Source: Pecten maximus (lineage: Eukaryota). From it: DNA of 64,000 bases. The stretch spans positions 33,232,001 through 33,296,000 of the forward strand of contig NC_047030.1 of NCBI RefSeq assembly GCF_902652985.1, written 5' to 3'. Every line of letters starts with the position of its first letter. Within the stretch, counting starts at the first letter, position 1. A program made the translations under genes and the position numbers. The notes beneath the pieces are model-generated. The model was not told where the DNA came from. It did not search any database and was given only the letters and a program-made list of their open reading frames with translations. Shown in pieces: positions 25,401 to 62,226 of this stretch.

Positions 25401-27419
25401 TCCTGTGTATATATCCTGTGTATGTATCCTGTGCATATATCCTGTGTATATATCCTGTGTATATATCCTTTGTATGTATCCTGTGTATGTATCCTGTGTA
25501 TGTATCCTGTGTATATATCCTTTATATATCCTGTGTGTATATCCTGTGTGTATATCCTGTGTATGTATCCTGTGTATGTATCCTGTGTATGTATCCTGTG
25601 TATATATCCTGTGTATGTATCCTGTGTATATATCCTGTGTGTATATCCTGTGTATATAGCACGAGGTACCAATGTTAGCATCCCGACAACCAAATACATT
25701 CCTTGAACTCACAGTACATGTACTTAATTATAAGCTATGTTTGTTTACTTAGTATGCAAACAGTGATTAACACTGACGTATCATACGTTACTACAATACA
25801 CTAGGCTTCTCGTACTGAACGTGTGGAAATGTCCCGTTTCTCCACATTATTGATTTTAGTAGAGAATATAAACGCCCTGAACACGTATGCATATCAGCAA
25901 TGATATAACAATTTAATCGTTTTCGTTTTTCCGATTCATTTAATTTATTTAAAACTTGATGTTGTTTGTTGTTATTTTTCCTAAACATTACGAAATAGCT
26001 GCATCATAACAGAGAAAAGTAATATTATAATTACGGGATAGTGCTACACTTTATATAAGATACTATTGAAGATAAAAGAAAAGGAAAGTAATTGAATGGG
26101 GACAATATGGGCTTTCGTAGTTTGTTATCGTACAAATAACGGCTTGATGATTATCTTTAGCTCAAGGAACATGCTTTATACAATTTACCTAGCACACATA
26201 AAGTGTTTATTCAAACCAGGAGATGCAGCATGTGCTGAAGACCTTGAACGGGAGAGCTATCTTTAGGCGACATTAGATAGGTTTCGAATGGCACTTCTAT
26301 ACAAAATAATCTATAACGAAATTGTTGATTTTAACGTCATGCCACAGAATGATAGCATTTGTGACGTACTTGGGTGATTTACTTAAGCATTGATGTCATT
26401 TATTTTAGTTTCATCGGGGTATGAAAAAAAAAATTGTTTGTAAACTTCTGTAAGAATCCACTACGCGCAACGCTTATAATTAAATTTTGAAAATAATTTT
26501 CTAATCTAAAACATGCTTTATGTACAATTTTACTGGTTTTATATGGGATTCCTTTTCTCAAATCAATACGCAACGTCAATTTTCGTATTGTGACGTCACA
26601 TTTTTCGCGCCATTCCCGGAATTTGTTGCATAGTGGTATAAAAAAAGATCTCAACCAATCAGAAAGCCGCATTCTGCGTACAAATAATGGAAAATTAATT
26701 ATTGTTTAATGAATAGATAATGGAGTTGAGAGAAAATAGATAACTTTTTGAAATTTCACAAGTACATTGTCGGTAAATTGTATATATATGTTATATAATT
26801 AGATTATTTTTGATAGCGTCGAAATTCTTCTTTCGGAAAAGGGAGGCGTACAGATTGAAACAAGTTAGTAGAAAATGTATATACATATTTGAATTGTACA
26901 ACTTTGGTATATTTCAACACGTTAGTATATCTTGATGAATTTATGAAAATGCATTTTATGTCACATATGCTACATGTAACAGCATGAGCAGGCATAAGAA
27001 CATTAGCAAGAAATATCACATACATGCAAACACGCAATGCCTTGTAAATGCATTCTTCTAATTACATGTTGACGTCGCTTTTGTTTTTTGTTTAATAATG
27101 TTTGTTTCCGTTTTTTTCTTTAGTTACTTCATAATTCCTTTGTAATAAAACATATTCTGTATTTTGTTATCCACTTAAGTCGTTTGAAATTGATCGACCG
27201 TAAACTGTAACAAATGAAAAAAATGCTAATGGTGATATACAGTACGTACCAAGGGGCGGGTCCATACGGTCCTTTATGCTGTACCGAGAGGTTGAATCTG
27301 GGATTAAATGGATACGTCATACTGTTAAATTCCAAATCATATGAGAGATCAACAATTCTCCTACTGTCAACCGGCATAATTGTCACCATCGCCGAACAAA
27401 CCAACATTAAACCAACCAT
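22470..27419 (-). CDS. cyclase-family metal-dependent hydrolase (kynurenine formamidase KynB/isatin hydrolase-like), copy A. Exons 27419-27250 and 23154-22470
   Basis: Signal peptide MVGLMLVCSAMVTIMPVDS, then RIVDLSY, the HTGTHVDSPNHF family motif, HFPG, GVDTPS, PVH, IENVAN and GASGAPAR. A phase-2 GT-AG intron joins P-W-L-Q. The intron spans an assembly gap. Confidence 0.9.
24161..24336. other. assembly gap
   Basis: Run of N. Confidence 1.
24390..25657. repeat. 13-bp minisatellite (TATCCTGTGTATR)n, about 97 units, in the cyclase A intron
   Basis: Directly visible. It explains the 13-aa periodic ORFs on both strands. Confidence 0.97.
26383..26698 (-). mobile_element. non-autonomous Crypton-like element retaining the outer arm of a terminal palindrome
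   Basis: TTAA at both ends. The body is homologous, in inverted orientation, to 28053-28350. On the minus strand it ends TGACATCAATGCTTAAGTAAA, the same last bases as the element ending at 62226. Confidence 0.6.
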
Positions 27420-28052
27420 TTCTGCGTCGTCCCAGGTTTCCTATTTCGATCAGTTTGGTTTGAAAAGAAAGTTCAAATCACCCAAATTTCCGCAGGAGAC
27501 CACACTGGTGTAGTTGTTGGCAAAAGAGCAAAGGTTTAACATACAATACATAAATAACGTGTGTTTTCTTACAGAAATGTCAAGCCCAATGCGAATAATC
27601 TACGGTAATGATGGTACTCTTGGAGTAAAGACGTGGGGAATGTGCACAATATACCCACAAAAACACTGTCCCTCTTCTGATATTTATAAAGAAGCAGATA
27701 TCAAATCCATATATAAAACAAATCATAACTATATATACAACATATCATAATTTTGGCGAATTGAATGCATATAATAAATTGGCATCGCTATTCATTCTAT
27801 TGAGGAACCATCCTTTTTTTAAAATTTTTTATTATTATTATTATTATTTTTATTTTTTTTTGAAAATGCATTTCGTTCATACCATAATAGGTCAAACTAT
27901 GTTTTCGTCTACATCAAACCAATGCGATTGTTGTTGCCAAAATAAAATCGATGAGCTACCGGAAGAAGTCCATGTTAACGCTATAATCACACGTGACAGG
28001 AAAACGTCAAGAATGGACTCATAAGATATAAGCTCTCACACGCTACCTCTTT

Positions 28053-28423
28053 GTTTTCCATTGTTTGTAAGCAGAATGCAGCTCTCTGATTGGTTGAGAT
28101 TTTTGTTTCATACAACTATAATTATTTTTTTTTTGTTTTCATGGTTAATACTTAAATGTGATTGGTCGAAAAATTCTTTTCATTCTTCTATGAAAGAAAT
28201 TCGAGAATGGCGCGAAAGATGTGACGTCACAATACGACAATTGACGTTGCGTATTGATTTGAGAAAAAGAATCCCATTTAAAACCAGTAAAATTGTACAT
28301 AAAACATTTTTAAATTAGAAAATCATTTTCAAAAATTAATTATAAGCGTTGATGTCAATTTTTTTTTTAGTTTCATCGGGGTATGAAACAAATTTTGTTT
28401 GCAAACTTCTGTAAGAATCCGCG
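28053..28423 (+). mobile_element. second copy of the same non-autonomous element, retaining the inner arm of the palindrome
   Basis: Shares GCAGAATGC..CT.TCTGATTGGTTGAGAT and GTGACGTCACAATACGA.AATTGACGTTGCGTATTGATTTGAGAAAA with the 26383-26698 copy. It stops at AAGAATCCGCG. Confidence 0.6.
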
Positions 28424-29226
28424 AACTTTTGTCTCCAAAGACGGACACGGATTTCTTATCGATCATATGTTGATTGAAAATGGCAAAAGTGATTGTGTAG
28501 GCGATTGGATATTTTGCTTTATAAGTACCAATTGTATCAATACCGTCAATGGTTCAGTAGACTCAGATTTGACACAACCGGTGATGCTTTTCAGCTTAAA
28601 GTAAAAAAAGCACCTTGAAAAGTGACCTTGACCTTGACTCTACATGGTTATACAATGATTCAGCTAAAGAAACATCAGCCAAACCTTGCTATGAACTGAT
28701 TGACAAAAAGGACACTGGGCGACAGGGAAGGTCGATGCCAAAATCAATTAGTCATCTGTGTAAAGAAAGCAACTTAAAAATTGCTGAACGAGCTGTAAGA
28801 ATAAAAACAAATTCTCAATCAAGAAACATCTTTACAGCGTTATTCTGGTTTGCATTGCAATGCGAAAGTGATTTCTCTCGAAAGAGTCAACATGTACCTA
28901 AGGTAAATCTAACAGGAAAATACTAAATGCATTCTCCAAAAGTTAGTGTGCACGAAGTCTCGCGCATTTTTAAACATGTAAAATGCACAAAATTTACATG
29001 TTATAGCTTTGCTGGGAAAGATGCCACAAAATGATATTTTCGATGCTTCATCTGGCCTAATCCCCTTTTCTTGTCCTCATTGGTTCCATAGAAGTTCAGC
29101 AACAAACTACAAAACTAATATTACAGTACATACATATATAAGTATATATGGGAATATACCACCGCAAATAAATATATTCCAGCTTAATCTAAACCTCAAG
29201 TTGACTTTAGCTCACAAATGTCACTG

Positions 29227-29974: not shown

Positions 29975-32900
29975 ATGGAGGCTGGAGGAATGGTTGGATT
30001 GATGTTGATTTTGTCGGCTATGGTTACGATTATACCAGTGGAGAGTCGGAGGATTGTCGATCTTTCCTACGATATGGACAACAATGCTTTGACGTATCCC
30101 AATAATCCTCGCTTCAACCTTACCCTCGTACATGAGGGATCCTACGGACCTGTCCCATGGTAAGTATCTCAGTTACCTTGTCAATTTTCTTTTAATCAAG
30201 AATATTTAGGCTAAGCCTAATGAAATGCCAAAAATAGATCGAAGTGGGATTAAGCGATTTTAGACATTGCATGAATACGATATTGGGTCCAGATAAATAT
30301 GCTTATCATTTTTTATTAATGTATGTAAACTATATTTATTCTACAACAATTGCGAAACAAGTTATATCAACTTATATTAATCACTTTCGATGGCCCTGAT
30401 GGAAGCGCGCGAGGGGTCTTACTGTCTGAAGAGACTGGAGTAACCGGGGAAAACCCACATGGTCGAGCAGGTGACTTCATATCTTTTCACGTCCAATCGA
30501 GGAATCAAACTCCAACAAGCAAAACATTAAAATGCGCATGATGTTAACAGACATTAATGGGGATTTTTCATTTGTATACAATGAGGGCTGATTACTGGTG
30601 CTTTAGCGCAGATTGAGAACGCGCCAAAGCCAAGTTACAGAGAAGTTTGTCGCGTTTAAAAAACCTTTACAACGGACCAACACGCCAAAAACAACATTTT
30701 ACCTAACCATCACACCATAATATAAATAATGCAGAGTCGAGTCAAATTAAGAATATCTCGTCGAAACATTAGCATTAGCTCATGAAAAATTAGCAAAAAA
30801 CATGTTTTAATACGTAAAGGAAAGGAGGAATGGCTCATAGGTATAAATTCACATACAATGTATTAGTAGATTGTGTGCAAACTATCGATACAAAAATGCG
30901 AACTAAAAACTTTAATATTTATTTCAATAATTTTCTGCAAATTATAAACAAATTCAGCCCTATATTAAGTACATATTACTTTAATGTCTGATGATCACAG
31001 CCAATTAAAATCAATTTGATACGAATACAATAAATAAATAAATCAATAGATTCCGCCGAAAATATTTTGACATTTATTTTTTTAAGAAGTGACCTACATT
31101 TATTGCGTGTATTTCAAATCATAAGTAGTAAATATACATATATCAATATCATCTTCTCACTGTTCAAACACAGGAAATAAGAAATTAACATTCGCTACTT
31201 TTTCCTATTCAGGAACACATTAATTGAAACAAATTGCACATTGCATGATGTCCTTTCGCTCAACTCGTTAAAATTATGCATCAATTATCACCCTTTCATT
31301 CACATAGATCAATGTAAATATCAAATAATAAGACTTAAGCCCAAAAATATATCAACTATAGACTTTTTATATATAAGAACATAATTTGACTGTTTAATAC
31401 AATTGGGCTACAATGGTAACATTCCGATATGATTAAACATAATGTTCATTTTTCAACAAACTACAAACACACCCACAATGTACAAAGAAATCTTCTTTTG
31501 TGAGAAGTTAGGCAATCTACAATGACTGTTACTACATTGTTTGGTTGATAACACGTTTTCGCGGGTATACATATGTCTTTTTTGAAACTATGCTTTATAT
31601 CACAGCTGCTGTACCTAATTATGCTGACTCTATCCATATCCTATGCTATATATCTGTACACTATGCGTGCATTGTAGAAGTATAGTAGACGTAAGAATCT
31701 AGGTCATTCGGAATCCTGCAGGCGGCCAACATGTTTATCTGACGGATAGAGTGAATCTATGTCCAGATGTTGGAAATATGTCAACACTTACTTATCCAAA
31801 ACATGTTATATATGAAACCTGTTGATCTATTATAATATGTTATAAATATAGATCCGAATGTAGGCCCCCAAGTCAAAAGAATATACTCTATGGGAAGATG
31901 ACTTAAGAAGTCTGCATATCCTTAAGTTATATGTTATTAAAACATCAGATTGTACACGTGAAGGTCTGGGGTCAAAATTGGTAGGTGAGAAAAAAAGAAA
32001 TGGAAAAAAAATATTGTTAAAAGTAATACGAATTTAATATTCGAGTAAAGTTTTTATTCATTTTGCCTGAAAATAACGCAGCCGTCTTAGTCTATACGTG
32101 CAATATTCAGTAACTGATATAGAATTGGTTATTGATTATTTTCCGTCAAAATATATATTTAACATCTCGTTCTGCACATTTAACGGTAAACGGTCTAGAT
32201 TACTAACAATGAAAATGGGGCTTTATTCAGTCATATTTACTCTTCTCCAAAATGACTGGTTTTATATTCAATGTACTGTGCAAAGGGTCCCCATACCATT
32301 CTTAATATATTTCAAATGTGCCCTAATTCACTAGTTTCTTTAGTCAGAATCATGGTTACATTATTACATTGGTGTTCTTGTTATTTTGTTGTTGTTGTTG
32401 TTTTTTTTTATTTTATTTTATTTTTTTTTTTTTTTGTTTATACAAAAATAAGGCAAATTTTCTTTCTTGAATTCAAAGGAAAATCTAATGATGCAAACAC
32501 AATCTAGAGGGGAAGAGTTCACTTTCTTTTTATCGCCGTAGTAAGATGTATCTTCATTTTCATAGATATCAATATGTATCAACATTTTACCATGTATTCC
32601 CAGACAGCTTATCAATATTTTTCTCCTGTAAAGGAGTAAACAAACAGTCGGATGAACTTAAGTTGAAATATATTTCCCTTTTGTAACGCATCGCTCTACT
32701 GAACGTTTGCTTCCTCAGTAATATTTTTCGCCGCGTTCTCATGAAGGGATTAAATATAAGTTAAAATTAATTGCTTTGCAATTGTTGTAAAATAACTGTT
32801 TTGATATTATACTTCTTTATATATTCATAGGCTGCAGTTTGGAAATGTGGAGTTCGGTGTACACACTGGCACGCACATCGATTCTCCGAACCACTTCGTT

Positions 32901-33515
32901 AAGGGGGGTCTACAGGCACATCAGATCAGTATGGAACGGTTAATGGGGCCAGGGGTGGTCATCAATGTCAAGGCCAAGGTCGTTCAAAACATAGACTATG
33001 AGATCACTGACAAAGACTTTATGGCTTGGGAGGAAGAAAACGGTCCAATTCCTAAGGGCGCCATTGTACTAATGAACTCTGGCTGGGGTGCAAGATATCC
33101 TGATTTTGAGCGAGTCTTTAATTCTTCAACATACAAACAGGACCATTCATCTCTTCATTTTCCAGGATTTCACGCGAATGCTGCTCAATGGCTAGTCAAC
33201 AAACGACATATATATGCAATCGGAGTTGATACACCCTCGGCTGACAACGGCAGAAGCTCTTCTTTTCCTGTCCATCAAATTGTAATGAAAGAAAATATCC
33301 TTATTATTGAAAACGTTGCAAATATGGACAAACTTCCAAGCAGTGGATCATACATTTATCTCCCCATGCTCAAGTTCAAAGGAGCGTCAGGTGCGCCTGC
33401 GCGTATGTTCGCCGCCATTGAAGACGAGGGAGACAGAACAAACAGTGCAACAGCCTTCGTCTCTCACGTTTCGGCTGTTGGATGTTTGCTCGTGCTAAAA
33501 CGCCTACTTATCTAA
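29975..33515 (+). CDS. cyclase-family metal-dependent hydrolase, copy B. Exons 29975-30159 and 32831-33515
   Basis: Signal peptide, RRIVDLSY, HTGTHIDSPNHF, GVDTPS, PVH and IENVAN. The intron has the same position and phase as in copy A. Hydrophobic C-terminus. Confidence 0.93.
30355..30520 (-). mobile_element. V-domain-like SINE relic in the cyclase B intron
   Basis: GGAGTAACCGGGGAAAACCCAC is the reverse of the V-SINE core GTGGGTTTTCTCCGGGTACTCC. Confidence 0.55.
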
Positions 33516-38939: not shown

Positions 38940-41560
38940 TGTAAACAATAAGGTTTGTTAAATTTTCGAGGCAATCCGCCCCTTTATCAAAACACAAAAA
39001 ATCACAAATACAATCACATAATATATATAAGAAGTACTGAAAATACAATATAATACAATAAGAATAATAATTAATGTTTTAGTAACTGGAGAAACCACAA
39101 TGAACCCTTCGGCAAACGTGGGCCGAAGGCGGATACTAGCGTGACTGCATCATGTTCAAACACTAGAACGCTATGCGACCAACGGCAGAGATATTTTGAA
39201 TTCCCCCGCACGTGAAAGTATTCCGAAGAGTTCAAAGACGATTCGTCCCTAAACACTGCTAGTGGACGACATTGCATTTATATAAAAAATGTTGCATTAT
39301 CGTCTCTACAGTGATTGATTAAATATCGTGTACAAAGTCTGAAAAACTTTAGAAAAATATGTGTTAGATCATAAGAATTATAGAGCACACGTGTGAAAAA
39401 ACTGCTACAAATATTTATCAAGACTGAAAATATAAGAAATACGAATGCCGAAGTGTCCCTACAGGACGCTACGGGAAACAGACGATTCGGACCAACTCGG
39501 ACCAAGATGCTGCTGCATGATGGCGGGAGGCGACTAAATGTGAGTCTCAAAGAGCAACAATGAATAGATGCCCCAACAAGTACAGCAATTATGAAAAATT
39601 TAACAAATTGAATAATTAACTACATGAATTGTCAGATATAATGGTCAGATGGAGAGTATATCCAGAAGACGTCTTTAACGTTCGTTCATACCCCGAGGGT
39701 AGCAGGTTTGGAGATTGGTGATCCAGTATCTTTCTCTGGAACGACGTTTAGTTTCATTCCAGGTAGGACAGTGATCAATGGCGACCACCTGCATATCCTT
39801 CCAACTGTGACTAGGTAAATTGAAATGCCTTGCCACAGGAAAGTCTGGTCTGTTTTGCTTGATGGAGCAACGGTGATTGTTGATTCTGATGTTGAGCTTT
39901 GTGCTGGTTTCTCCAACATACTGCATTTTGCATTTTTTTGCAGGAGAGGAGATATACAACATTGGCTGATGTGCATGTCAGTGTTTGTAAAATGTGATAA
40001 ACACGGTTGTTTATTTCACATTTAAACGTGTCTGTGGACTCAGTGTATGGGCACAATTTGCACGTTTTTTTGCTGCATGTGTTGAAGGAGCCTGTTGTAA
40101 CGACAGAGGCAGATGAATGTAATTTGCTGCTCACCACCAGATCTCTTACATTTTTTGGTCTACGATAGGCCAATAACGGTGGTTCTGGAAAGATCCGTTT
40201 GAGTGCAGCTGACGACTCGATGATGCGCCAATGATTATGTAAAATGGAAGAAATAGACGGCAAGTTAGGATGGAACGTGACAACACAAGGGACCCTTTGT
40301 GTCGGAGTTCTGACTTTGTATTCTAGAAGGCTGGCTCTGTCAAGTACCCTGACTTTGTCTAGTTCCCGATCTATCAAAGTAGATTTATATCCTCTAGCAA
40401 GAAGGTGTGATTTAAGTTCTGAGCATCGACGTTCGAAGACTGTATCATCGGACACTATCCGTCGGATACGTAGAGCTTGGGAATAGGGAATGCTCTTCGT
40501 GGTGTGTGAGGGATGACAGCTGGACGGGCGGAGATACTGGTGCGTGTCAGTTGGTTTGGAATAGAGGTCTGTGTTTATTTTCCCGTCAAGTAAGGTTGAA
40601 CTGGTGTCTAGAAATGTGTTAGTTTCCGTGGAGACCTCTGCAGTGAATTTGATTGTTGGATGGAACGTGTTTGCGTGATCTATAAATTCATCGAGTGATG
40701 TCCGGTTCGAAGTCCATTTGATTTCAATATCATCGATGAATCTGAGCCAGCTGAATGGCTTAATTGGAGCAGATGCTAAAAGTTGGGATTCAAGATGTCC
40801 CATGAATACATTAGCATATGAAGGAGCCATCTTAGTGCCCATAGCTGTACCACTGACCTGCAAGTAGTTTTCATTGTTAAACTGGAAGTTGTTGAGTGTG
40901 AGGACAAGTGTAAGTAATTCTACTAGACTATCAGTCGATGGGTGCTTATAACCACGGCGTTCCCATGCCTCCCGACAAGCATTAATGCCGTCCGCATGAG
41001 GGATGTTTGTGTAAAGAGAGATGACGTCCATTGTAACTAGCAGAGTACCTTCTGGTATGTTGCTGGATGGTGTTTTATTAAGATAATCGGTGGTATCTTT
41101 TATGTAAGATGGTAGATTTTCAACAATTGGTCGAAGATGGAAATCGACGAATTTAGAAATTTTCTCCGTCGGATGGCCTATAGAGTTGATAATAGGTCTA
41201 CCCGGGTTTCCAGGTTGATGGATCTTAGGAAGGAGATAGAATTTCCCTGATAGAGCATTTACGGGACGCAGGAAACTAGCGGTATCTGCGTCTATATCCC
41301 CCTTGTTGAGTATTCTATCGATGGCCTCATTGATTAGTTTGGCGTGTTCTTGCGTCGGGTCCCTATCAAGTTTGCGATAGAACGTCTCGTTGGTAAGCTG
41401 ACGGTTAGCCTCATTGATGTTATCACCCCTGTTCATAATAACCACTGCAGAACCCTTATCTGCTGGCTTGATAACAATCTCCGCATTATGCTTGAGTGCT
41501 TTGAGTGCCTGGCGTTCTGATGGCGACAGGTGGCGACGTTCTGATGGCGTTCTGATGGCG
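38940..41560 (-). mobile_element. Penelope-like retroelement (RT + GIY-YIG endonuclease), 5'-truncated. Coding region about 41530-39675 with one homopolymer frameshift at 39933-39939
   Basis: Motifs IKPADKG, FYLLPKIH..PGRPI, MDVISLYTNIPH, GTAMGTKMAPSYAN, RFIDD, FLD, LYSKPTD and SIPYSQALRIRRI. A Cys-rich linker CSKKTCKLC leads to NVVY..C..C..QYVGET..RINNHR..RERYWI..GMN. The 3' boundary is inferred from the ribozyme. Confidence 0.93.
38956..38994 (-). ncRNA. minimal type I hammerhead ribozyme, U3/A8 variant, downstream of the Penelope-like ORF
   Basis: Minus strand: TGTT-TTGATAA-A-GGGGC-GGATT-GCCTC-GAA-AATT-T-AACA. This gives stem I TGTT/AACA, core UUGAUAA in place of CUGANGA, a 5-bp stem II, GAAA and a palindromic AATT stem III. 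Confidence 0.65.
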
Positions 41561-41980
41561 AAATATATCTATAGATATATAGATATATTTACATTACGCT
41601 TTCATCTTGTAAACATTTAAACAACTGTTTTACGGTTGTGTTTCATTATATGATCAAATGCAAAATTTACAGACTGGAAAAACCGCGGGGAGCATTCATC
41701 AGTTCCAATGATAATCCTATTATGTGGCTGTATTAACGGGTTACAATATACTCCCCAACAGTGTACACCCGATCATGGGTAAACATACATCCGGGTACCT
41801 TGGTAGACCGCATGGCGACAGATGTCACTGGCTTGTGAGCGTAGTTGATGACATACACATGCAACACATCATCAGAATCAACAACGCCAGACTAGACTTA
41901 ATCAATCGTTTTAAGAATATACACTGAGAAACTCAGTGAACGATACAACCTCCATAATAGTTCCAAAAGGCAAAAAGAAG

Positions 41981-52418: not shown

Positions 52419-52941
52419 TACGGTGGCTGATTAAGTACATGCAATGATTTTTTTTTCTAAGTTAGGGCCTAAGATAGCTATGTTAGGGCCCTAGGTTATT
52501 ATGTTATTGCCCAAGATAGCTATGTTAGGGCCCTAGGTTACAATGTTAGAGCCCTAAGATAGCAATGTTAGGGCCATAGGTTACTATGTTAGGGCTCTTG
52601 ATTACTAAGTTAGGGCCCTAAGATAGCTATGTTAGGGTCCTAGGTTACTAAGTTAGGGCCCTAAGATAGCTATGTTAGGGCCCTAGGTTACTATGTTAGG
52701 GACCCAAGATAGCTAGGTTAGGGCCCTAGGTTACTATGTTAGGGCCCTAAGATAGCTAGGTTAGGGCCCTAGGTTACTATGTTAAGGCCCTAGGTTACTA
52801 TGTTAGGGCCCTAAGATAGCTATGTTAAGGCCCTAGGTTACTATGTTAGGGCCCTAAGATAGCTATGTTAGGGCCCTAGGTTACTAAGTTAGGGCCCTAA
52901 CATAGAAAAAAATCTTTGCATGTCCTTAATCCGCCATCGTA
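52419..52941. mobile_element. MITE with about 50-bp TIRs, TA ends and an internal 21/22-bp tandem array
   Basis: The left end TACGGTGGCTGATTAAGTACATGCAATGATTTTTTTTTCT matches the reverse complement of the right end AGAAAAAAATCTTTGCATGTCCTTAATCCGCCATCGTA. The array alternates GTTAGGGCCCTAAGATAGCTAT and GTTAGGGCCCTAGGTTACTAT. Confidence 0.85.
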
Positions 52942-53421
52942 CATTTGTCTTTTGTCTCCTGGTCAACAAGTTCATTGCCTTCAATTCAGACATAGCTCAG
53001 AATCAGAAGTAAACTAATTTTGCGTTTATCAAAGATACGAGATAGTTGAACAAAATGGTTCTGTACGAGAGTGTTTTTAAGATATCGTAACTGTAAATTT
53101 TGATGAAGAGACAGAGAGTCAGACCAAATGATTGTTTTTTAAATGTAGTGTAGGATGCTTGATCACAGTAACATTGTTGTCATGCTGTTCACTGTCGTCA
53201 ATAGGAACGAAATATATGGCCAGTTTGCAGTTCAAGGCAGGAAGCCTATTGGTCCGTGTTACAGATTTAGGCGTGGTGTGATGGCAGGTCACTTGACTGT
53301 ATTGACGGCTGGGATAGAATCCGATTGTGCTGGTCAGCACCCTGCCTTTAATTTTCGTTGGTGTGTCTTTTTTGTTGATTTTGATTTTGTTGGTACTAAT
53401 GATGATGCTACCTGTTTGGTA

Positions 53422-56400
53422 GATAGTTTCGGAGGTTATTCAGCGAGACCGATTCTCTGGTAATGATATGGCTAAACATATGTCATTTAAATTCATATAT
53501 TGTCGATGGAGCCGGGCTTCGACTATGACTAGTCAATGTGGTTCTTCGACATCAGACACAAGGATTTGCTTAAAGCACTGAAATACTTTCTTTTAATTTG
53601 GGGTTTTGTGATCAGATTTGTATTGGTCTATCTAAACCTTCCTCCAATATCATCACTCTGTATGTGACGTGACGTACATGAGGGATATAGATGGATTTTA
53701 CTACGCGTGAGCGTATTGTTGTGAGAATAAGGGATAGTCATTTGTGAGATGCAGTTAGATTCAAATTAACAATATCAAAAAGCAAGTCAGACTGAAGAGG
53801 GTTCTCCAGAAACAGCTCACAGATGTTAGAATGATTATGGTACGAGTCTTACAATAAGTAGTACGCGATCTTGAAGCTGTGATGTACATGTAATGGTCTG
53901 GAACTGAGAAAAGTAGCATAAGTTTATCTCATGTGACTCTGACTTCGATATTTAAGGTATGCTGTTCAAAAAGTCTTTTATAATGTATAATCAGCAACAT
54001 GAATAATTATGCTTTATTTTATTTTACGTGCCTCTGTTATGGTGTTACATTGTTAGATTGGTGAAGTCCATGTTAAACTCGAAGCATAAGAACATTGTTT
54101 TCCTAAACAGAGATCACGGCACCTTTAAATGGATGATAATTAACCCAAATTACTCTAGTGTATCTTATAGTAGGTTTGTATCTTTTTTCGACAGTCCCAA
54201 CGATTCCTTTAAATGTTGATTTAATCTATATTAAGACCAAGGAATACAACATTTATTAAATATGTCGAAAATTTAGTGACAATATAGTTTATATACAGCA
54301 TATCTTTTTTTTTTTTTTTTTTATTTATTTTATTTTTAAGACATTATCAATACATAAATATATAAAAGTCACACACACAAACGCACATCGATTCCAGTAT
54401 GACTGGTTTGTTATCAACATATAGTCTTAATATCATCTTCAATGTCATCATTACTTATATTTTTCATCATCATAGTCTCTTCATCCCACTTAAACATTAA
54501 AATATACAGCATATCTTATATATATATTTCCGAACAATGATTTGATCATGTATTGTAGTAAGTATAGATGTGTATTCATTATAACTGGCGTTATGATTAA
54601 ACATGTTTTAATTTTAAGGTAAAATTTGTGAGGCACCATCTAATAAATGTCAAACGAGCCAGTTTTCAATGCTAGAAAGTCGACAGTGGAAAAGTGCACA
54701 CGGTTTATATTTTAATTTATGGAAATATATTCTGTTGCATATGTTGCGTGTGCAATTGCATAACAACCTACGCAATTCTCACCTGAACCTGATACAGTGG
54801 TAGATGGTTTAAGTTCTGTTTATTTGCTATTGAATTCAAGTCACATCATTAAAATGAATTAAAATATTTAAAGGTGCACGCTCTTTCTTTAAAATGGCAT
54901 GATTTAGACCCAGGGTACGATAGATGTAATTTTGTATTGTGTGTACTATATATACAAAATGGTGGTGAAGTGTGTTCTGTGTACCATACTCTGTCATAAT
55001 TGGAAGACTATCAATCATATGTATTATTACTGTGTGTATCAGATGATAGATGTATATATTTAAAAATAGTATTGGGTAATAATAAATTCCAATCAAGAGA
55101 CCAATGGGTTCTTTTTTCACTCTTTGTTATCGGTATCATATACGAATGATGGTATTTATGGCGAACGCAGCAATATAGCATCAACCGGAAGTCTGTTATT
55201 TTGACAGCACCCTTTTTACCTGAAAATATCTCTACATACACCATTGATCGCTTTGATTTATAAAGTCAAGATCCATATCGAGGATAGAGAAATAAAATAA
55301 ATTGATTCTGATCCTTGATTATGTATATATTGATTGATTTTTGCATAGAACATAACTTGTCATATTCCCTTAAAATCCTGCATTCAAATTTTTTTTTTTT
55401 GAACGGCCTTGTTTTGTTAATAATGCAGGTCACCACTGTCGTCAATGAATAGAAAAAAATGCATACATGTGATTACTGTCCCATACTTAGCATTTCCATG
55501 GCATTAACTTGCAAAACATGTTTGGGTATGTTTACTTGTGCAGTTTATTTTTCCAAAATATGGAAATATATTCAGTAGCACGTGTTGCGTGTATAATTAC
55601 ACACCTACCTATTGAATAATTGCACGAACACTACGATAGGTTCAGACGATAGATGGTACGTATATCATATCTTCTCTGTTAAACTAAAGTTATATACACA
55701 CATTTCAAAACATTAAAGCGAGCGAAATCGTCAATAACACTAGGCATATAAAGAAGAAGAAGTAAACACCTTTTTATTCTTTTTTATTATTATTATTTAG
55801 TTTAATCGTGAAGTTAATTATCATGTAAACATGATTTGGATACACAAATTCTACGTGGTAAAAATGGATTTATGCAAATTAGTAAAAAGTTACGATATTT
55901 ATCTTGGCCTTTGACCCTGTTACCTTTACGTCTGACTCAGTGATATTGTCTATTGGTCAGTTGACCAAATGCTTAATTCTGACTAACATTGTTTCATGGA
56001 AGATCAGTGAAAAGGTACAAAAAATATCTTGACCTTTGACTCAGTGACCTTGATTATTAACCTAGCAAATCTTAACTCCTTGTTTACTTCTGACCAGTAT
56101 TGCTTCAAAATGTTCCTAAGTGAAATGATAGAAAATGAAACTTGGCATCTTAACCAGTATCCTTGATATTTGTTCAATTTAATCATTGTTTAATCCAACA
56201 AGCTTGACTTCATGGTGTCATCACAAACTGTTCATCAGCAAAGATAGAAAATACAACAGACATTTCCCCATTTGACCTTGACTTTCTTATCTAGTTCCGC
56301 CATGTTTTCTCGACGTGTTATAAGAACATATTCATAAGCAAACAAATACATATCTGTCCTGGACCTTTCGATCTAATGACCTTGATCTGTCGTTATGTTA

Positions 56401-59400
56401 CCATAGTGTTCACTTTTATATACATACTAAACTTCTTGACCACGTTTCATGCAAATCGGCCAATAAATGCTATCAATATCAGCCGAGAACAAAATGATAG
56501 ATTGACGTCCTTGTGTATGTCAGCTTTTATCGTGTCGAGAACATCTTTTCTTTAAATTGGGCAAGAAGCGTGCAATTTTGTGTGTACACCAGTTGCATTA
56601 ATCAACGTTCAGTGCCTTAGATTTAAAACATAAACTTTTCCTTATTGACAGAGCTATCTCCACTTGTTCAAATGTCTATTGTCCACCACCTGCCAACCCG
56701 TCATATCGACTTTTTTGTGTTACACGCAAGGGATAAGATTTCATTTGTGCGCAGTTACGTTTCGGTGCATCGAGAACATAACATACTTGTATTCCGATAC
56801 ACAGGACATGATATACGAAAACTGACATCACCAACTATAATGATAGTTTCGGAGGTTATTCAGCGAGACCGATTCTCTGGTAATGATATGGCTAAACATA
56901 TGTCATTTAAATTCATATATTGTCGATGGAGCCGGGCTTCGACTATGACTAGTCAATGTGGTTCTTCGACATCAGACACAAGGATTTGCTTAAAGCACTG
57001 AAATACTTTCTTTTAATTTGGGGTTTTGTGATCAGATTTGTATTGGTCTATCTAAACCTTCCTCCAATATCATCACTCTGTATGTGACGTGACGTACATG
57101 AGGGATATAGATGGATTTTACTACGCGTGAGCGTATTGTTGTGAGAATAAGGGATAGTCATTTGTGAGATGCAGTTAGATTCAAATTAACAATATCAAAA
57201 AGCAAGTCAGACTGAAGAGGGTTCTCCAGAAACAGCTCACAGATGTTAGAATGATTATGGTACGAGTCTTACAATAAGTAGTACGCGATCTTGAAGCTGT
57301 GATGTACATGTAATGGTCTGGAACTGAGAAAAGTAGCATAAGTTTATCTCATGTGACTCTGACTTCGATATTTAAGGTATGCTGTTCAAAAAGTCTTTTA
57401 TAATGTATAATCAGCAACATGTATAATTATGCTTTATTTTATTTTACGTGCCTCTGTTATGGTGTTACATTGTTAGATTGGTGAAGTCCATGTTAAACTC
57501 GAAGCATAAGAACATTGTTTTCCTAAACAGAGATCACGGCACCTTTAAATGGATGATAATTAACCCAAATTACTCTAGTGTATCTTATAGTAGGTTTGTA
57601 TCTTTTTTCGACAGTCCCAACGATTCCTTTAAATGCTGATTTAATCTATATTAAGACCAAGGAATACAACATTTATTAAATATGTCGAAAATTTAGTGAC
57701 AATATAGTTTATATACAGCATATCTTTTTTTTTTTTTTTTTATATTTATTTTATTTTTAAGACATTATCAATACATAAATATATAAAAGTCACACACACA
57801 AACGCACATCGATTCCAGTATGACTGGTTTGTTATCAACATATAGTCTTAATATCATCTTCAATGTCATCATTACTTATATTTTTCATCATCATAGTCTC
57901 TTCATCCCACTTAAACATTAAAATATACAGCATATCTTATATATATATTTCCGAACGATGATTTGATCATGTATTGTAGTAAGTATAGATGTGTATTCAT
58001 TATAACTGGCGTTATGATTAAACATGTTTTAATTTTAAGGTAAAATTTGTGAGGCACCATCTAATAAATGTCAAACGAGCCAGTTTTCAATGCTAGAAAG
58101 TCGACAGTGGAAAAGTGCACATGGTTTATATTTTAATTTATGGAAATATATTCTGTTGCATATGTTGCGTGTGCAATTGCATAACAACCTACGCAATTCT
58201 CACCTGAACCTGATACAGTGGTAGATGGTTTAAGTTCTGTTTATTTGCTATTGAATTCAAGTCACATCATTAAAATGAATTAAAATATTTAAAGGTGCAC
58301 GCTCTTTCTTTAAAATGGCATGATTTAGACCCAGGGTACGATAGATGTAATTCTGTATTGTGTGTACTATATATATACAAAATGGTGGTGAAGTGTGTTC
58401 TGTGTACCATACTCTGTCATAATTGGAAGACTATCAATCATATGTATTATTACTGTGTGTATCAGATGATAGATGTATATATTTAAAAATAGTATTGGGT
58501 AATAGTAAATTCCAATCAAGAGGCCAGTGGGTTCTATTTTCACTCTTTGTTATCGGTATCATATACGAATGATGGTATTTATGGCGAACGCAGCAATATA
58601 GCATCAACCGGAAGTCTGTTATTTTGACAGCACCCTTTTTATCTGCAAATATCTCTACATACACCATTGATCGCTTTGATTGATAAAGTCAAGATCCATA
58701 TCGAGGATAGAGAAATAAGATAAATTGATTCTGATCCTTGATTATGTATATATTGATTGATTTTTGCATTTAACATAACTTGTCATATTCCCTTAAAATC
58801 CTGCATTCAAATTTTTTTTTTGAACGGCCTTGTTTTGTTAATAATGCAGGTCACCACTGTCGTCAATGAATAGAAAAAAATGCATACATGTGATTACTGT
58901 CCCATACTTAGCATTTCCATGGCATTAACTTGCAAAACATGTTTGGGTATGTTTACTTGTGCAGTTTATTTTTCCAAAATATGGAAATATATTCAGTAGC
59001 ACGTGTTACGTGTATAATTACACACCTACCTATTGAATAATTGCACGAACCCTACGATAGGTTCAGACGATAGATGGTACGTATATCATATGTTCTCTGT
59101 TAAACTAAAGTTATATACACACATTTCAAAACATTAAAGCGAGCGAAATCGTCAATAACACTAGGCATATAAAGAAGAAGAAGTAAACACCATTTTATTC
59201 TTTTTTATTATTATTATTTAGTTTAATCGTGAAGTTAATTATCATGTAAACATGATTTGGATACACAAATTCTACGTGGTAAAAATGGATTTATGCAAAT
59301 TAGTAAAAAGTTACGATATTTACCTTGGCCTTTGACCCTGTTACCTTTACGTCTGACTCAGTGATATTGTCTATTGGACAGTTGACCAAATGCTTAATTC

Positions 59401-60947: not shown

Positions 60948-62226
60948 TTAAATATATTTACATTTGGATGGCAAAGCCATGATATAAACAAACTAAACGA
61001 ATTTGCAGTCTATGAGAGTATAACTGACACCCAAAGCGTGACGACATTCTATGCATAACTGACACCCAAATCGTGCATTCGGGTGTTATTCATACGCGAC
61101 CGGATCCCCCGGAACTACTTGCAACCAATGTAAACAAATGGCATCTTATCATTGCTCATCATGCTATCGGATAGAGTACGAGACCAGAAAACAAATCTTA
61201 AAATGTAAAACGAAAATAAAGGTAAGAATGGTTAACAATCACGAAAATGGAAATAAAACAAGATTTAATAAACACATATGTTGACAGATATTTGTTCCGG
61301 GGCCAGAGTGGAAAATCATTACACACCACATTGTTTGCGCGCCACCGCCATCCAGTGTTTGAATGACAAAAATTTTGAAACCCGACACATCATGTTTATG
61401 TCAAATCATAAGAACGAGGCTTCTCTCCGGTCGTATAATAGAACAGTTTCTTCTTCACAAAAGAAAGCATCAAGTGGTGCCCGTCACAAGCAACGTTGTC
61501 GCTGAAGCTCGTCTAACTCCCTCGGCCACTGTCACTTCTTACATTGGTCGTATCCCTGACACCGGTGCTGTTGTAGCTACTATAAACTGTAATCAGGTTT
61601 CCATGCAATCAAAGAACATGTTTACATCTGGTTTTTTGGCGAATTCCACTTTCTCCCACTGCACATTCAACTTTCATAGCTAAACTCTGTCAATGCTGTC
61701 AGCCGTTGCGTGCGCGTGGTGACGGGTGAAATTTCCATCCGCATAATTGTTCCGGATGGTAAATTAAAAAAAAATCCGAAATCGTTAATAAACTGAATAA
61801 TTCATCCGTATATTCTGAAATACTGACTACCAATATTATTGATATTGTTATTAAAATATCTGATGATGTTTTCAGTATTTTTTTAATTATTTCCATGCAC
61901 TATTTTTTTTTATTTTTTTTTGCCAATCAGCACGTGAATCACAATAGGCTGTTCAATTTGTTGACCTCTGACAACGGAAACGTCGGTAAAAGTCAGATTT
62001 CAAATTATAATGAAAATTAAAGTTGAAATCGAAAAGAAACTAATATAGAAAACGTAAATATAAGCATTAAACTGTCTTTTTATGGATTATATGGTCTATA
62101 TAGATGCCAGAGCTTTGCAGACAATCATTTCATAATGCGCTAGCGCGCATTATGAAAATTGTCTGCAAAGCTCTGGCATCTATATAGACCATATAATCCA
62201 TAAAAAGACAGTTTAATGCTTAAGTA
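60948..62226 (+). mobile_element. internally deleted Crypton-like (tyrosine recombinase) element
   Basis: ORF 61278-61505 contains HYTPHCLRAT..IMFMSNHKNEASLRSY, matching the H-x-L-R...H...Y C-terminal half of a tyrosine recombinase. A frameshifted tail ends FSHCTFNFH. TTAA occurs at both putative ends and there is a long terminal palindrome. The left end is tentative. Confidence 0.8.
62061..62222. repeat. 162-bp palindrome (arms of 80 and 78 bp, 4-nt loop TAGC, one 2-nt bulge)
   Basis: TAAGCATTAAACTGTC...CATAATGCGC-TAGC-GCGCATTATG...GACAGTTTAATGCTTA. Confidence 0.97.

Follow-up and report, generated by a model that had tools for sequence, protein, structure and literature searches.

The window, by which we mean the whole 64,000-nucleotide stretch of DNA analysed here, contains in its 26-28 kb region two non-coding elements, each of which keeps the opposite half of one kind of terminal hairpin. 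The question raised by this locus is whether the two complementary halves carry a meaning, as a preliminary description made from the sequence alone had supposed, and what the complete hairpin is for. We show here that the end architecture is real and general, and that the opposite-halves pattern is ordinary decay.

Two broken copies in the 26-28 kb region

The bodies of copies 1 and 2 (Table 1) are inverted (88.7% identity across 195 nt); in both copies the arm segment is found on the plus strand (28343-28420 against 26384-26459, 87% over 79 nt), exactly as previously described. On the minus strand copy 1 reads body, TAAGCGTT, loop remnant, right arm and AATGCTTAA; the earlier reading as body, loop remnant and arm therefore stands, with the correction that 8 nt of left arm are kept and that the tip is inverted. 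Copy 2 reads body, left arm and GCG, with unrelated sequence beyond. The bases GTAAA, which had been taken as part of the conserved end, follow AATGCTTAA in only 3 of 108 junctions and are target DNA.

Table 1. Positions of the element features discussed in the text
Feature	Position	Strand	Remark
Copy 1, non-autonomous element, subfamily A1, 320 bp	26383..26702	-	left arm mostly deleted, tip inverted
Copy 1 right arm, the 3' end of the element, finishing AATGCTTAA	26383..26459	-	
Copy 1 deletion joint, 8 nt of left arm and inverted loop	26460..26476	-	
ICR-like segment of copy 1, complementary to the 5' terminus	26476..26488	-	
Copy 1 5' terminus ATAATTAATTTT	26691..26702	-	
A1 5' fragment hosting copy 2, 64 nt	28054..28117	+	
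Copy 2, non-autonomous element, subfamily A2	28118..28423	+	right arm and end lost from hairpin tip
Copy 2 internal complement of the 5' terminus	28331..28343	+	
Copy 2 left arm	28343..28422	+	
Family B element, 1.27 kb, derived by deletion from a DUF3504 recombinase element of ~2.7 kb	60954..62223	+	
C-terminal tyrosine-recombinase fragment (H-x-x-R, H, Y)	61275..61499	+	frameshifted
Family B internal segment complementary to the 5' terminus of the element (ATATTTACATTT at 60954)	62049..62061	+	
Family B intact terminal palindrome	62061..62223	+	antisense loop C-GCTA-G, 2-nt bulge near tip

The body of copy 1 is 94.9% identical with its best other copy and that of copy 2 97.3%, and a boundary was also seen at 26702, matching the 5' end of copy 1. 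Copy 2 is nested inside an A1 fragment, and the same A2-in-A1 joint recurs at 3 further places; the rest of the host A1 copy was probably removed by the deletion in copy 2. Short-read contigs of the runs X1 (28393-28800) and X5 (28395-28560) extend without a gap from the arm of copy 2 into the flank with an arm-side overlap of 29-31 letters, and an X5 contig (26434-26490) spans the deletion joint of copy 1 with 35 and 22 letters on either side, the overlaps at both joints being at or below the 31-letter bridging threshold. Since both deletion joints are present in contigs of other runs, the arm loss in copies 1 and 2 is probably biological rather than an assembly error. A reading of the two copies as a single composite element with long inverted repeats is not supported: they belong to different subfamilies and have separate ends. 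Depth between them is single-copy.

A2 copies are found repeatedly inside family-A copies at one T|ATG site (window 28110-28125; loci L144, L303, L351 and L028), which is the junction of the A1 and A2 5' parts with the shared body, and insertion of A2 at this site may have been the origin of the two subfamilies. On either side of the region lies one of a pair of paralogous ORFs of ~240 aa, both lacking introns and inverted relative to each other (22470-23204, minus; 32805-33515, plus), which we take to resemble cyclase/kynurenine formamidase; a partial third copy lies near 19.7-20.2 kb. The window also holds a 585-aa reverse-transcriptase-like frame at 39811-41568 (minus), presumably Penelope-like from its appearance, recent tandem duplications of 91-100% identity at 53400-59400 (~3.42 kb period) and 17600-22900 (~2.6 kb), a 13-bp minisatellite at 24290-25660, and a 21/22-bp satellite with a palindromic core at 52446-52960.

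Decay of the family-A hairpin

Copies 1 and 2 belong to family A, a non-coding family of ~385 bp with at least 964 copies, this being the number of genome matches to a 24-nt body motif (control 0) in the 918 Mb assembly that contains the window. The family ends in GCTTAA, and its intact palindrome measures ~158 bp. The palindrome which had been reconstructed by combining copies 1 and 2 does exist in the genome, and was complete in 15 of the 26 right ends examined (30 loci, of which 4 were skipped by the exact anchor). Hairpin integrity was read in the first 70 of the 964 body-motif matches in genome order: 37 copies span at least 145 nt from left arm to right end, establishing the full two-arm palindrome as the family form, while 15 are internally deleted, 16 lack the right-end motif and 2 lack the internal segment. 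When a stricter window of 148-172 nt was applied, the hairpin was intact in 32/70 copies as against 51/70 for the equally long 5' body. Breakpoints vary between copies and, read by eye, many begin at the tip; inverted tips were seen by eye in about 2/70.

About half of all copies thus have broken hairpins with varied breakpoints, and the meaning formerly attached to the opposite halves is not supported. Because one-armed copies are routine, a left-armed and a right-armed neighbour need no special cause, and the complementary halves in copies 1 and 2 are chance. Local inversion of one single arm was likewise rejected as an explanation, full two-arm copies being common. In a few cases (L139, L283 and L306) family D elements are inserted into the arms of family-A hairpins, at T|ATGAAAC.

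A terminus shared with recombinase-coding elements

A genome scan for TATAAGCRTT-N130-160-AAYGCTTAA gave 1,186 matches as against 0 for the control; the first 100 matches listed comprise at least seven arm types, and the shared terminus also bounds DUF3504 tyrosine-recombinase elements, that is, elements of CryptonA type. The proposal of a functional recombinase site was therefore right in that the terminus is common to a wide family and tied to tyrosine-recombinase elements; it was too simple in that the unit consists of the hairpin together with an adjacent 12-15-nt complement of the 5' end. The palindrome at 62061-62222, which had been put forward as a case of conserved structure with divergent sequence, is real, with 65-nt arms that are 100% complementary and without detectable kinship to the family-A arm (z 1.2). 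Kinship is seen with the arms found in families C, D and E (z 4.5-5.2). The element that carries the palindrome is itself an internally deleted derivative, and its recombinase fragment matches Phage_integrase at E 2.5e-5, below the curated cut-off.

Full family-B copies of ~2.7 kb encode a DUF3504 recombinase (in L151, PF12012 at E 2e-10 and 41.4 bits against a cut-off of 29.7), as does family E, whereas family A is non-coding. The catalytic R, H-x-x-R, H and Y are intact in L151, L152, L154, L156, L157 and L158. In structure prediction the full recombinase ORFs adopt a Cre-like fold, and a fold search with the model placed Cre first, with no integron integrase among the matches listed; a PDB sequence search returned XerA at E 0.65 and a chance match only. 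Among the frames of at least 150 aa listed in L151-L154 we found the recombinase exon and an upstream exon, and no reverse transcriptase or DDE transposase. In L151 (916-3700), three further frames lie ahead of the full family-B copy; we take them to resemble genes of Polinton type for a minor capsid protein, a major capsid protein and a cysteine protease.

The DUF3504 search scored 150 of 327 candidates, and 53 recombinase loci, one of them a family-B metagenome contig, were examined. A palindrome of 90-260 bp follows the ORF at a distance of 250-1300 nt in 32 of the 53, compared with 7 of 52 upstream control windows; the other 21 showed no full palindrome, some of them having partial ones and some perhaps being truncated. 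Palindromes occur in both deep clades of a quick recombinase tree built from the proteins of this genome only, with the ends GCTTAA in one and CTAT or TTAT in the other. Two scans of viral sequences for relatives gave no matches, a metagenome scan gave one contig (94% identity), and a scan of prokaryote genomes also gave one (L352). This last contig encodes a 50%-identical recombinase, lacks DNA similarity to the other loci examined and has the same layout of internal complement, palindrome and antisense CGAG blocks; as it is a single copy its exact ends are not fixable. L352, assigned to a bacterial genome bin, holds an animal-type Crypton element and is probably host DNA.

No recombinase ORF with family-A ends was found among the coding elements examined, so that the case for a recombinase acting in trans on family A comes from the termini and target which the elements share. 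Between families A and B the terminal 8-9 nt, the geometry and the target agree, while arm and 5' sequence differ, and family A is a probable non-autonomous partner of CryptonA-type elements. It might instead be of Helitron2/Helentron type, moved by an HUH Rep-helicase and merely resembling the recombinase elements, as the failure to find an autonomous partner would allow. We consider this very improbable: family A shares TAAGCRTT...AATGCTTAA with the recombinase-coding families B and E, as well as their arm length, bulge, loop type, joint offset and W|NTR target, and the 3' repeat, which in Helitron2 lies 20-30 bp from the end, lies here at ~160 bp.

The internal complement and the joint

An intact element consists of a 5' end of 12-15 nt, a body, the complement of the 5' end and a palindrome of ~160 bp. 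The 12-15 nt that immediately precede the left arm are the reverse complement of the 5' terminus in all 14 families counted, a set to which R, X and Z do not belong. Across the 14 families 162 of 182 positions pair, whereas shuffled pairings of 5' ends and complements gave a mean of 96 and a maximum of 141 in 100,000. The two segments covary between families, although the 5' ends of B, E, C, D and W are matched by the complement of some other family as well as by their own, or better.

The joint between elements arranged head to tail corresponds to the internal complement with 2 nt added, and these 2 extra nt are present in families A, B, P, Q, Y, AA and V. As the 5' end and the internal segment are reverse-complementary, the internal segment is the complement of the circle joint. 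A natural full copy folds computationally into a dumbbell in which the 5' TT is unpaired. For the predicted family-A joint there are 12 occurrences as against none for the control, 11 of which run on into a family-A body; such head-to-tail arrays are no proof of circles, because each element end recreates the target.

Insertion without duplication

At 20 of 28 informative loci the empty repeat unit equals the exact left flank joined to the right flank; this set was obtained after removal of 7 trivial tandem rows, and three of its loci come from one satellite array. Clean insertion was also seen at 4 of 5 loci of the second clade. Insertion takes place at W|NTR with nothing duplicated or lost, and duplications of 3-8 nt are seen at 1-3 of 108 junctions. 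In families A and B, respectively, the W of the target is present in 43/44 and 51/51 cases, the T in 38/44 and 48/51 and the R in 44/44 and 51/51. The exact-match empty sites include five in which the first target base is other than A. A 2-bp AT duplication was considered and dropped, since sites starting with G, T or C receive insertions alike.

These data bear on the classical Crypton route, in which a double-stranded circle would be inserted and excised by two Cre-like exchanges and the palindrome would serve as a cruciform protein-binding or replication signal and not as a substrate. The Cre-like protein models are what this route would lead one to expect, the circle joint A|ATA agrees with the W|NTR consensus, and in Chlamydomonas a CryptonF has been described to recombine at a shared CAYCG and to excise cleanly (PMC9977147). 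However, there is no 4-6-bp direct repeat, target homology amounts to about one base, and no carried-over donor bases were found at the junctions; in addition, in a duplex model a covarying 5'-end complement that is 2 nt out of register would be superfluous. We therefore regard the classical route as unlikely.

Strand asymmetry and hairpin tips

In 23 family hairpins we counted 26 tandem GA/AG mismatches on the antisense strand versus 1 on the sense strand; by folding, 12 families have GA on the antisense strand only, 1 shows the reverse and 10 show neither, the families being related so that strand and family counts are not independent. The antisense loops are of the form cGNAg/cGNNAg in 11 of the 23, including A and B, and cTTg/cTNTg in 7, and are unclear in 5, which include all 3 of the hairpins that were mis-centred. 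CTTG loops are stable in DNA. Hairpins of the sequence GCGNAGC/GCGNNAGC are reported as extra-stable DNA mini-hairpins (PMC13037366) and the CGAG block as a stable DNA motif (PMC10085684). The loop and a bulge of 2-3 nt are present in families A and B, but tandem GA is not. Family A has a G.T wobble on the sense strand, and its nearest-neighbour energy slightly favours the sense strand (antisense -98.8 versus sense -100.0 kcal/mol). Overall, G.T outnumbers A.C by 23 to 11 (p 0.058). The sole exception to the strand rule is family U (L214:5804-5972), with a stable loop on the antisense strand and the tip GA pair on the sense strand.

The features favouring one strand point to a folded single strand as the putative substrate, and not to a loxP-like duplex site. 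Stable loops may nucleate cruciforms, a point which speaks for the classical Crypton route; a cruciform folds both strands, however, so that no preference for one strand would be expected from it. The fold might also act at the level of RNA, in a DIRS-like manner with reverse transcriptase supplied in trans, to which we give hardly any credence. While GA and GU pairs form in RNA too and the layout parallels the internal complementary region of DIRS (PMC8969392, PMC6681497), the strand favoured here runs antisense to the gene, recombinase frames are the only ones among the frames listed for full-length elements of B and E, and the RNA counterparts of the stable DNA mini-hairpins are described as far less stable (PMC13037366).

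With patterns that exclude family A, 260 canonical and 28 inverted tips were counted. Obligatory flip/flop isomers were rejected on these numbers. In one family several copies carry an identical inverted tip (L247, L249, L251-L253, L256, L259 and L261), and the inverted-tip isomer of that family may have transposed. It has also to be asked whether the palindrome is a replication device, acting by a rolling hairpin, by telomere-resolvase-like cutting of the tip or by 2-micron-like inversion between the internal site and the joint. Tip inversions do occur, copy 1 being one of them, the internal segment repeats the circle joint in inverted form, and tandem arrays exist, all of which such a device could explain. 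Even so, it appears improbable to us, as the inverted tips are far from one half of the total, the tip sequences differ between clades, and the swapped markers among those listed lie near the tip with the outer ends unswapped. Host template switching would swap markers near the tip and leave the outer ends.

A proposed single-strand mechanism

From the sequence features set out above we consider it reasonably probable that A-type and DUF3504 elements move as a folded single strand, the recombinase cutting and rejoining one strand at a time. According to this model the antisense strand would be exposed, either as lagging-strand template or through a cruciform nucleated by the tip loop, and would fold into a dumbbell in which the palindrome forms a single long stem. 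The other element end would pair beside this stem, so that both element/host joints would come to lie at a single nick that leaves an end of 2 nt unpaired. Acting in trans, the recombinase would then cleave both joints on the antisense strand, giving a closed single-stranded circle which would enter another YAN|W site by one strand exchange, and replication would make the second strand, as with integron cassettes. With 3'-phosphotyrosine chemistry the conserved YAN would be on the enzyme-bound side and the unpaired 2 nt the free 5' end, and a free, unpaired 5' end would fit the near absence of target homology. Once inserted, the palindrome would be a fragile site for the host, and arms would be lost from the tip, giving rise to window copies 1 and 2. 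Folded single-strand substrates have a precedent in attC recombination (PMC3458562).

More tentatively, we suggest that animal DUF3504 Cryptons may be single-strand recombinase transposons whose homology-free, scarless insertion is resolved by replication, and that their end design may be ancestral to the ITR/ICR arrangement of DIRS. For animal Cryptons terminal repeats have so far been denied and the mechanism drawn by analogy, as far as the available text of the literature searched goes. The end rule found here, consisting of 5' end, internal complement, long hairpin, 2-nt offset and W|NTR, delimits elements in any genome and supplies exact substrates for testing. If the single-strand model is true, integron-type chemistry would extend to animals, a small scarless insertion system would be at hand, and there would be a lead on the DNA structures once recognised by the Crypton-derived vertebrate proteins ZMYM, QRICH1 and KCTD1.

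Comparison with known systems

The elements of families B and E show the CryptonA features tested: recombinase-only coding, DUF3504 above cut-off, intact catalytic residues, a length of 2.2-2.8 kb, abundant short derivatives and no target duplication (PMC3212892). Animal Cryptons have been reported to be without terminal repeats (PMC3212892, Kojima and Jurka 2011), and no terminal repeats were found in fungal CryptonA (PMC13465315), whereas what sets the ends here is a long palindrome at the 3' side together with a complement of the 5' end inside the element. An end structure of this kind was not described in the available text of the literature searched on Crypton/Eulor termini and Crypton excision (Repbase/Dfam entries lying outside this scope), and was absent from the examined text of PMC3212892, PMC13465315, PMC5753468, PMC3627910, PMC9977147, PMC8969392, PMC6681497, PMC13037366, PMC10085684 and PMC3458562. 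The palindrome itself may already be known to repeat curators. Annotation as hairpins exists for some ancient vertebrate repeats that were subsequently assigned to Crypton.

CryptonF and CryptonS, according to the Goodwin model, likewise use a tyrosine recombinase and gain copies by precise integration, but have terminal direct repeats of 4-6 bp that match the target, as compared with homology of ~1 base here (PMC9977147). Helitron2/Helentron elements share the asymmetric inverted repeats, the 3' hairpin and the lack of duplication, and differ in having an HUH enzyme, a short hairpin and other end bases (PMC3627910). In our elements an asymmetric terminal inverted repeat of 8-15 bp does lie upstream of the 3' hairpin; however, the coding elements with these ends encode a recombinase and not a Rep/helicase.

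In DIRS, as here, an internal region is the complement of the first part of the left end and the last part of the right end, and a tyrosine recombinase is present. The DIRS hallmarks of an RT/RNase H ORF and long ITRs are not seen in the B and E elements, whose listed frames include no reverse transcriptase; in addition, the left end here is only 12-15 nt, and the right-hand part is a local 80-bp stem. With integron attC sites our elements share an imperfect palindrome, strand-specific unpaired features and a tyrosine recombinase, as well as single-strand exchange, which for our elements is predicted from sequence asymmetry (PMC3458562). The integron system is prokaryotic, whereas the elements described here code for the enzyme themselves and have a 5' end that folds back to pair next to the hairpin.
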